Positions 19,501 to 21,617 of a stretch of 40,460 bases of DNA are shown piece by piece. The position numbers and the translations under genes were made by a program. Under the pieces are notes generated by a model. The model was not told the origin of the DNA. It made no database searches and was given only the letters and a program-made list of their open reading frames with translations. Source of the DNA: a virus; UHGV virus genome UHGV-1390708. One strand, 5' to 3'. Positions within the stretch are counted from its first letter, which is position 1. Each line of letters begins with the position of its first letter.

Positions 19501-19964
19501 GCAGAGTAACCGCGATTATCTCCGCTCTGGTTATCTGCATCATCGTCTGCCTGTCGTGGGGGGTCAATCATTACCGTGATAACGCCATCGCCTACAAAGA
19601 ACAGCGTGATAAAAAAGTCAGTGAGCTGAAGCAGGCGACTGCCACCATTACTGACATGCAGCAGCGCCAGCGTACTGCTGATGCACTAGATGCTAAATAC
19701 ACGAAGGAGTTAGCTGATGCGAAAGCTGAAAATGATGCTCTTCGGCGCAAGCTTGATAATGGTGGCAGGGTGCTCGTCAAAGGAAAATGCCCTGTGCCAG
19801 CCTCAACCGAAACCTCCCGCGCCTCCGGCATGGGCAATGATGCCACCGTCGAACTCTCTCCAGTTGCTGGACGAAACGTTCTCGGTGTCCGGGACGGAAT
19901 CATCCGCGACCAGACAGCACTGAGAACGCTTCAGGAATACATCAGGACGCAATGCCTTCGATGA
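19497..19964 (+). CDS. Rz: i-spanin Rz
   Basis: N-terminal transmembrane helix ([16 protein letters not shown]) plus coiled coil; lambda-like N-terminus with a divergent C-terminus. Confidence 0.85.
19717..19923 (+). CDS. Rz1: o-spanin Rz1 (embedded in Rz, +1 frame)
   Basis: Lipobox 'LIMVAGCSS' and a proline-rich stretch; entirely nested inside Rz. Confidence 0.7.
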
Positions 19965-20118
19965 TAGCGATAATTTTACTCATCATCCTTCACATCTGGC
20001 TCTGTAGACAGGGTGGTGATCACTTCTGGAGTAAATCCAGATTAAACATCTCATTGCTGATGCTTGATATTGAGCATCTGGCGCGCGGTAAGGGGCTGCG
20101 TTGAGATAAGAGCCAGTT

Positions 20119-20162
20119 CATTACAAATACCAGGATTTAGCCTCGCATTCGCGGGGTTTTTT
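20119..20162 (+). repeat. Junction motif copy 1 (ATTACAAA plus hairpin and T-run)
   Basis: cATTACAAAtaccagg...cctcgcattcgcggggTTTTTT upstream of the DUF2829 gene. Confidence 0.5.
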
Positions 20163-20186
20163 ATTCCCAACTCCATAGGTAATTTT

Positions 20187-20666
20187 ATGACCCAGCATAT
20201 TGGCGTAAAACTGATTAACGCCTTTCCGATGACGAGACAGGCATATAACGATTTTCGTGGCTGGCAGCTTCCTGCCGGAGAAAACGGCGAGGACGAAGGC
20301 TATCTGGTTGAATATCTGGATGGCGGAAAACCTAACACCGATCGCTTTGATGGCTACGTTAGCTGGAGTCCAAAAGAAGTATTCGAAAGGGCTTATCGTC
20401 CGGTATCAGGACTAAGTTTCGGCCTTGCCATGGAAGCGTTAAAACAGGGCAAAAGTTTGCAGCGGGCAGGATGGAATGGGAAAGACCAGTTTGTTTATCT
20501 CGTGAAAGGGGAAAAATTAGCGTCTGCGTTGGGTTATGGCTTTGGCGAATATGTTGGCGAGCCAACTTTCAATGACACGCTTGTATTGAAAAACTCACAG
20601 AACCGCCTTGCTACATGGGTTCCATCCATTGGCGACCTGATGGCTGAAGACTGGCAAATCATTTAA
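20187..20666 (+). CDS. DUF2829 (Tad2-like) domain protein with a unique N-terminal extension
   Basis: C-terminal ~85 aa 'AMEALKQGKSLQRAGWNGKDQFVYLV...ATWVPSIGDLMAEDWQII' fits my recollection of the DUF2829 signature (GWNGKG ... LAEDWE). The track's 20064 start was rejected. Confidence 0.6.
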   Translation: MTQHIGVKLINAFPMTRQAYNDFRGWQLPAGENGEDEGYLVEYLDGGKPNTDRFDGYVSWSPKEVFERAYRPVSGLSFGLAMEALKQGKSLQRAGWNGKDQFVYLVKGEKLASALGYGFGEYVGEPTFNDTLVLKNSQNRLATWVPSIGDLMAEDWQII

Positions 20667-20676
20667 CCATGTAGTC

Positions 20677-20710
20677 ATTACAAAGCCCATCAACGGGTGG
20701 GCTTGATAAT
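20677..20710 (+). repeat. Junction motif copy 2 (ATTACAAA-GCCCA-loop-TGGGCTT-GATAATG)
   Basis: Directly after the DUF2829 gene stop. Confidence 0.5.
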
Positions 20711-20899: not shown

Positions 20900-21271
20900 A
20901 TGAACGACCAGCAAATCGAAAAAGAAATTGTTGAGAAAGGCAAAACGGCACCGCGCGTTACGCCAGACCATATCGAAGGAATTATTGCTCAGGAGGCATA
21001 TTTCACAGCAGAGGATGGTGCCTTTGGCAAAGCCATAAAAGCGAAACATACTGGCGGAGAGGTAAACTACCAGCCGCACGAATCACTTTCTCTGCTGACG
21101 TTCTGCGTCCTGGTGCTGCGCAACGGCTTCACCGTCACCGGAGAGAGTTCCTGTGCAAGTCCGGAAAATTTTGATGCAGAAATTGGTCGGAAGATTGCCC
21201 GGCAGAATGCTGTAAACAAAATCTGGATGCTCGAAGGTTACTTGCTGAAGCAGAAGCTAAGCGAACAGTAG
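20900..21271 (+). CDS. Hypothetical cargo protein (123 aa)
   Basis: ORF between the lysis and packaging modules; flanked by the ATTACAAA junction motif. Confidence 0.6.
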   Translation: MNDQQIEKEIVEKGKTAPRVTPDHIEGIIAQEAYFTAEDGAFGKAIKAKHTGGEVNYQPHESLSLLTFCVLVLRNGFTVTGESSCASPENFDAEIGRKIARQNAVNKIWMLEGYLLKQKLSEQ

Positions 21272-21374: not shown

Positions 21375-21617
21375 ATGGCAGAGATTATTCCCATGACTGA
21401 AGAACAGAAATTCCAGTTAGAGATTTACAAGCTGGTCATGAACCAGAACGCAGCCGCAGAAGAAGCATTTCAATTCATCGGCACTGACGAGCTGAAGCTT
21501 GAGCTATTCAAAATTCACTTCCAGTCAGGCGGCGCTAATTCAGATATCACGACCCGTACTATCGAAGCGGTGCGTAAATCGAAGGAAGCGTTAGACCTGT
21601 TCACCACCGGAACATAA
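21375..21617 (+). CDS. Hypothetical protein (80 aa)
   Basis: ORF with GGAG Shine-Dalgarno, immediately upstream of the small terminase. Confidence 0.55.
   Translation: MAEIIPMTEEQKFQLEIYKLVMNQNAAAEEAFQFIGTDELKLELFKIHFQSGGANSDITTRTIEAVRKSKEALDLFTTGT

Follow-up and report, generated by a model that had tools for sequence, protein, structure and literature searches.

The open reading frame at positions 20187 to 20666 (plus strand) of the viral DNA analyzed here (UHGV virus genome UHGV-1390708, a stretch of 40,460 nucleotides that we refer to as the window) encodes a Tad2-family protein of two domains, in which a conserved domain of 74 residues (the NTD) stands in front of a C-terminal Tad2-like (DUF2829) domain. 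The reading that we favor, and regard as probable, is that the protein is a sponge for gcADPR-type signals of Thoeris, equipped with a dimerizing accessory NTD and encoded within a two-gene anti-signaling island. In essence, residues 75-159, which have the predicted fold of the Tad2 protein of phage SPO1, would assemble as a tetramer, the inter-protomer pockets of which (W96/N97 together with W144/S147/D150) would bind and sequester ADP-ribose-derived alarm molecules made by TIR proteins, most likely the 1''-3' gcADPR of type I Thoeris. With the signal sequestered, the Thoeris effector would stay inactive and the phage could finish its late cycle. The NTD, judged by its homology to the N-domain of RyR-Tad, most likely dimerizes by strand swapping and so links sponge protomers to one another, and is probably not itself a binder of gcADPR. 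The adjacent gene, which belongs to the Acb4 family, would cover cyclic-dinucleotide signals of the CBASS type, and the two genes would together form a small island in the late operon against nucleotide-signaling defenses (Thoeris and CBASS).

The reading frame is complete, running from an ATG through 159 codons to a stop, and the same start methionine is found in homologues from many genomes. A longer frame initiated at a TTG (position 20064, 200 residues) was rejected: its extra codons would read through a terminator-like hairpin, and the ATG is where homologues begin. The full-length protein falls within the PHROG family phrog_872 (E = 3.7e-69) and is 99% identical to a protein (P0001) that bears the name "DUF2829 domain-containing protein [E. 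coli]"; its AF2 model has a pLDDT of 91.9. Among 5426 complete genomes of E. coli, 32 encode the two-domain protein, for which RefSeq uses the same domain label. One such example, WP_000191869.1 of strain 55989, has a "Gp49 family protein" as its neighbor. The gene is therefore already annotated by domain, and the NTD-Tad2 architecture is common and not new: 2993 relatives turned up among 5.8 billion proteins searched, with full-length relatives forming more than 100 clusters of 154-173 residues that extend from the Enterobacterales to a Pseudomonas phage. Counting one genome per species, the hosts of prophages with this architecture include Gamma-, Beta-, and Alphaproteobacteria, Campylobacter, Bacteroidota, Clostridia, Planctomycetota, and Lentisphaeria. 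What is new here is the census, in which the NTD emerges as a dedicated partner of Tad2, Acb4, Sequestin, and RyR-Tad sponge domains. Within the literature on DUF2829, the N-terminal domain of Tad2, and Acb4, we found no experimental characterization of the architecture, and no description of the NTD apart from a preprint on RyR-Tad that is considered below.

The identity of the C-terminal domain (residues 75-159, positions 20409 to 20663, plus strand) is clear. The earlier note had assigned the last 85 or so residues to DUF2829 and Tad2 by eye, and this assignment is borne out at each level of comparison. Residues 77-159 match the Pfam family PF11195, "Tad2-like," with an E-value of 6.4e-22 and a score of 78.3 bits, well above the curated threshold of 25 bits. 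In a sequence search of the PDB, residues 75-159 align without gaps to SPO1 Tad2 (Gp34.65, PDB 8SME/8WJE; E = 3e-26), with weaker matches to ModTad2, SptTad2, and HgmTad2/AcrIIA7. The structure model superposes on Tad2 crystal structures, and identity to SPO1 Tad2 is 49-53%, the lower value being that of the Foldseek alignment. Compared with this founding DUF2829 sponge (PDB 8SME/8SMF/8WJE), the window protein agrees in its predicted fold, its core pocket residues, and the short form of its β2-β3 region; the main difference is that SPO1 Tad2 is a single domain of 89 residues, whereas the window protein adds its 74-residue NTD in front.

The residues of SPO1 Tad2 that hold 1''-3' gcADPR are W25, N26, I63, T65, D67, H71, W73, S76, T78, and D79 (Yirmiya et al.), and that protein, along with four of five tested homologues, blocks Thoeris through sequestration of gcADPR. 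The core contacts W25, N26, W73, S76, and D79 correspond here to W96, N97, W144, S147, and D150. In an alignment of 50 family members, W96, W144, and D150 never vary, while N97 and S147 are each conserved in 49. The same W-N...W..S..D pocket, on the same DUF2829 fold, is found in ModTad2, HgmTad2 (AcrIIA7), and SptTad2, of which ModTad2 binds His-ADPR and not gcADPR; overall, SPO1 Tad2 is a closer relative of the window protein than any of these three is. HgmTad2 and SptTad2 differ from it in carrying a long insertion of 35-41 residues between β2 and β5 that constitutes their cyclic-dinucleotide pocket. This insertion is absent from the window protein, and the sequence matches to HgmTad2 and SptTad2 span residues 76-113 only. 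Because the β2-β3 region is of the short SPO1 type, a cyclic-dinucleotide pocket is not expected.

The periphery of the pocket, which in SPO1 Tad2 is made up of residues in contact with adenine and water, differs. By the gapless alignment, I63, T65, D67, H71, and T78 of SPO1 Tad2 become L134, N136, Q138, A142, and G149, and the stacking residue F44 becomes L115. At three of these positions, on the adenine side, most homologues have T/D/T, and the N/Q/G of the window protein (N136, Q138, and G149, codons 20592-20594, 20598-20600, and 20631-20633) marks a minority subclade. The same combination occurs in P0004 and in a protein of Pseudomonas phage Skulduggery (P0033), and P0070 shares the first two residues (N/Q) and has T as the third. 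These co-varying positions may act as a specificity switch. T78 of SPO1 Tad2 makes the sole hydrogen bond to adenine (Yirmiya et al.), and the replacement of T65/D67/H71/T78 by N136/Q138/A142/G149 means that the preferred ligand could differ from gcADPR. There is precedent for such a difference in one Tad2 clade, which binds His-ADPR but fails to bind gcADPR.

The genomic setting of the gene is that of a complete P22-like (Lederbergvirus-like) prophage. The window encodes an integrase, a CI-like repressor, O/DnaB replication proteins, Rha-ANT, RusA, NinH, Q, holin, endolysin, and Rz/Rz1; after Rz/Rz1 come the sponge island, the small terminase, the large terminase, and the portal. The NTD-Tad2 gene thus lies between Rz/Rz1, with a gene-65-like reading frame of 50 residues (positions 19952 to 20104, plus strand), and the terminase genes. 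Relative to phage Sf6, positions 20128 to 20674 are an insertion of 547 bp that holds the gene together with a hairpin, and its edges are marked by a 10-bp direct repeat, TCATTACAAA, at 20118 to 20127 on the left and 20675 to 20684 on the right. The 10-mer occurs only at these two places in the window, and the corresponding junction of Sf6 has it once; this flanking repeat suggests that the cassette arrived by insertion at a microhomology. In Sf6 the slot is empty, and in other relatives KilA-N/Rha or HNH genes are annotated in the region. The description in the earlier note of a "cargo slot" between Rz and the terminase therefore fits what is found, namely variable content among relatives, an insertion of defined length, and a direct repeat at its ends. 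The GC content across the cassette is unremarkable and gives no compositional sign of recent acquisition, and tRNA genes such as those near the lysis cassette of Sf6 were not found near that of the window. The hairpin, which is G+C-rich, terminator-like, and followed by a run of T (20139 to 20168, plus strand, with the hairpin itself at 20139 to 20158), was located by a consensus scan inside the cassette, 19 nucleotides upstream of the ATG. It is of descriptive value only, as promoter and terminator scans gave counts in the region no higher than expected from shuffled sequence. Expression of the gene would be late and under Q antitermination, as judged by its position in the late operon; this is unusual for an anti-defense gene and counts against our main reading.

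A second sponge-family gene, which the earlier note passed over, follows at 20900 to 21271 (plus strand). Its product matches PF13876 (E = 4.6e-34), the family of the cyclic-dinucleotide sponge Acb4 (Chang et al.), resembles Sf6 gp66, and shares 44% identity with N4 gp48, the Acb4 of that phage, which binds c-di-AMP; it also matches the Acb4 structure PDB 9E4W (E = 2e-3). The slot, read from the sequence, is one in which two putative sponge genes stand side by side, as they do in phage N4. There, gp49 (YP_950527, 160 residues, "DUF2829 domain-containing protein") has the same NTD and Tad2 domains as the window protein, with 44% identity over the full length, and directly follows gp48. The same adjacent pair is therefore present in both phages, but the order is reversed, with Acb4 preceding NTD-Tad2 in N4. 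The settings also differ: N4 is a virulent member of the Schitoviridae and carries the pair in an anti-signaling hotspot beside the virion RNA polymerase, whereas the window phage is temperate and P22-like and carries it between lysis and terminase genes. In N4-like phages more generally, Tad2, Acb4, and Sequestin are found in this hotspot. While N4 Acb4 has been studied in the literature, we found no description of gp49 there. The association of the two genes extends beyond these phages: of 60 diverged viral loci that encode NTD-Tad2, 25 also have an Acb4 gene no more than 4 kb away, and in about 20 of these 25 it is directly adjacent, on the same strand, and on either side. The island of the window is bracketed by two genes that are conserved in P22-like phages, namely the gene-65-like reading frame and a DUF2560 gene at 21375 to 21617 (plus strand; PF10834, E = 1.1e-43; Sf6 gp67/HK620 hkbM-like), which is the last before the small terminase. 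In a GenBank record of 2025 for phage Huey (L001), the homologues of both sponge genes (NTD-Tad2 at 1758-2258, Acb4 at 2493-2873) are annotated "anti-CRISPR protein," labels that are probably a misleading legacy of the AcrIIA7 report.

The NTD (residues 1-74, positions 20187 to 20408, plus strand) is recognizable by the hallmarks K8, PMT (14-16), GYLVEY (38-43), and SWSP (59-62). The earlier note took it to be unique to this protein, a view that the searches do not sustain: it is a widespread, conserved module. When 1.84 billion representatives were searched exhaustively with phmmer, 1548 clusters (at 50% identity) had a match at E ≤ 1e-3, and 833 had one at E ≤ 1e-10; tblastn with the 74 residues matched 137 phage records, coliphage N4 and crAssphage among them. 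Residues 1-74 have no Pfam match, even at E ≤ 1. They do match the N-terminal part of phrog_9467 (E = 4e-16), the C-terminal part of which matches PF13876, the family of the neighboring gene. The NTD may stand at the N terminus, in the middle, or at the C terminus of proteins of 72-370 residues.

The partners of the NTD were assessed by a Pfam scan of the best 150 of the 1548 clusters. In this set, the NTD is accompanied by Tad2-like (PF11195) in 53, Sequestin (PF21825) in 36, and Acb4 (PF13876) in 24, with WDGH, DUF7307, AP2, and HNH_3 found once each. By architecture, the best 150 include 48 of NTD-Tad2, 15 of Acb4-NTD, 10 of NTD-Acb4, and one each of Tad2-NTD and NTD-RyR. A further 14 are apparent triple fusions (P0126, P0166, P0172, P0190, P0198, P0207, P0233, P0234, P0239, P0247, P0250, P0252, P0253, and P0265) in which the NTD lies between or beside two sponge domains, as in Acb4-NTD-Sequestin-like and NTD-Tad2-Sequestin-like, where the Sequestin-like calls come from jackhmmer and not from Pfam protein by protein. 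Only six of the best 150 appear to be stand-alone NTDs. An NTD was also sought in the Acb4-Sequestin fusion gp59 of Ab09 and rejected, as the reading frame of only 147 residues leaves no room for one.

In sequence, the NTD varies less than the sponge domain that it accompanies, with a mean top-residue frequency of 0.77 compared with 0.69 for the Tad2 domain in the NTD-Tad2 family. Across all fusion contexts, conservation reaches 90% or more at 27 of its 74 positions, many of them polar, charged, or aromatic; many of the highly conserved polar and charged positions are in loops. Among the conserved residues are K8, R17, Y20, N21, R24, W26, E32, D36, E42, Y43, D45, N50, Y57, S59, W60, and S61, and the motifs that are shared throughout can be written K..A.PMT, GY.V.Y, and Y.SWSP..F. 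Identity between NTDs is about 0.60 both inside and across partner classes, which indicates an autonomous, shuffled unit that has not co-evolved with its partners. The domain is acidic, with a net charge of about -3 as counted on the translation, and in the full-length model its predicted topology is β-β-α-β-β-α. Strand β1 is formed in that model and unformed in a model of the NTD alone, which we take as an indirect hint of strand swapping.

No solved structure in the PDB is significantly similar to the NTD. The top match, which is weak, is to DUF1653, and this family and the SH3/Tudor-like small barrels were rejected as the NTD fold for want of significant structural or profile similarity, a sequence relationship to DUF1653 not being detectable. 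Known small anti-defense families were also set aside. The NTD is not a Sequestin, as it has no match to PF21825 and is β-rich, whereas Sequestins are helical domains of 60-80 residues, and it is not Acb4, to which it has no Pfam match and the fold of which is dsRBD-like. Sequestin and Acb4 are nevertheless akin to it as small phage domains that recur with Tad2 and with the NTD. TadIV-1, which is helical, and Tad3-8 likewise gave no Pfam match; the latter, which are binders of TIR proteins or effectors, were distinguished by description only, and the authors of the RyR-Tad work, to whom these families are familiar, call the fold one of unknown function.

The comparison with RyR-Tad (gp68 of Pectobacterium phage CB1) gives an indication of what the NTD may do. 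The N-domain of RyR-Tad is homologous to the window NTD (BLASTP, 34% identity over 67 residues, E = 7e-6; profile-to-sequence HHalign, 95.7% probability, E = 9e-9), and a further protein, P0137, bridges the two by carrying an NTD of the window type on a RyR-Tad-like C-domain. The logic of the two proteins is the same, an NTD followed by a sponge domain, with the binding of gcADPR being established for RyR-Tad, but the C-domain of RyR-Tad has an all-helical RyR-repeat fold, unlike the Tad2 domain of the window protein. In the crystal, the N-domain of RyR-Tad is a β1-swapped dimer, and on its own gp68_N failed to counter type I Thoeris (Fedorova et al., bioRxiv 10.64898/2026.06.04.730250). It is because of this homology that we read the window NTD as a dimerizer. 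A further relative, the crAssphage protein KP06_gp41, combines an NTD with PF13876 and aligns to the window NTD with an HHalign probability of 98.1%. Two loops that NTDs of the window type conserve, RGW..P..ENG.DE and DGGKPN, are absent from both CB1 gp68 and crAssphage gp41. In the crAssphage locus (L005), a DUF1653 protein, gp36 (326-553), is encoded a few genes upstream of the NTD-Acb4 fusion gp41 (2001-2450).

A dimerizing role does not by itself account for the conservation of the NTD, with its many fixed polar and charged loop residues, nor does it explain why sponge families that assemble on their own should need such a domain. The main rival reading is that the NTD is an anti-defense module not recognized hitherto, which either soaks up another immune signal or binds a conserved part of the defense machinery, and that the protein is a bifunctional inhibitor that blocks two pathways at once. 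We hold this to be a serious but somewhat unlikely alternative. Blocking of two pathways has been demonstrated with an Acb4-Tad2 fusion, and the same has been inferred of fusions with Sequestin; fusion to known sponges was the criterion by which Sequestin (found through its fusion to Tad2 and Acb4) was discovered and validated. The fusion partners of the NTD include Tad2, Sequestin, Acb4, and RyR-Tad; it takes part in triple fusions, stands on either side of Acb4, and does not co-vary in sequence with its partner. Its conservation is extreme, exceeding that of the Tad2 domain and involving many polar, charged, and aromatic residues, and its spread across distant host phyla implies a universal target. 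Against this, gp68_N is inactive against type I Thoeris, and the ligands of RyR-Tad, isomers of gcADPR and cADPR, lie in the C-domain pocket of the crystal. The negative result may not transfer to the window NTD, since the N-domain of RyR-Tad is a divergent, short-loop form. Other observations also count against this alternative: the NTD is acidic, whereas the pockets of known sponges are positively charged, it is rarely found on its own, and a similar ligand-binding fold was not found in the PDB.

The sponge reading of the Tad2 domain faces two challenges of its own. One is that the protein is not an antagonist of immunity and instead binds housekeeping nucleotides (c-di-GMP, ADPR, or NAD-derived metabolites) to reprogram host physiology, or acts as a regulator. 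This is very improbable, notwithstanding that some Tad2 proteins bind c-di-GMP with picomolar affinity and that the sequence weakly resembles phrog_643, "transcriptional regulator" (E = 4e-5). Binding of cyclic dinucleotides depends on the 35-41-residue insertion, in place of which the window protein has a short region that is gapless against SPO1 Tad2, itself a protein that binds no cyclic dinucleotides; the linkage to Acb4 and the immune sponges among the fusion partners point instead to evasion of defense. The other, which we rate lowest of all, is an anti-CRISPR function like that of AcrIIA7, a DUF2829 protein reported as an inhibitor of Cas9. The shared DUF2829 domain and the annotation of the Huey homologue would be in keeping with it. 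The CRISPR systems of E. coli are of type I and not type II, however, and the window protein is nearer to SPO1 Tad2 (E = 3e-26) than to AcrIIA7 (E = 4e-6). Furthermore, inhibition of Cas9 by HgmTad2 and other Tad2 homologues was not reproduced, and action as a sponge was shown in its stead (Li et al.). The probable reading remains that of a Thoeris sponge with a dimerizing NTD.

On that reading, the Tad2 part of the protein is routine, being one more putative prophage sponge for Thoeris, paired with Acb4, in P22-like phages of E. coli. The useful lead is the NTD, a domain with no Pfam model and no significantly similar solved structure that is recurrently fused to four unrelated sponge families. 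It was invisible to the guilt-by-fusion search that yielded Sequestin because this used Pfam families only. Whether it is a scaffold or a new inhibitor bears on how multi-domain sponges are built, and its role could also point to an immune signal or a target that is new. Were it an anti-defense module in its own right, phages would be building multi-target inhibitors by joining it to Tad2, Acb4, Sequestin, and RyR-Tad, and its remaining partners could include further sponge families. These partners amount to a ready list of candidates for new sponges: in about 50 of the best 150 NTD proteins, the partner segment matches none of Tad2, Acb4, Sequestin, and RyR-Tad, some of these segments being fragments or frameshifted Tad2. 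Those of P0135, P0142, P0151, P0213, P0214, P0243, P0256, P0259, and others could be sponge-like domains not recognized so far.
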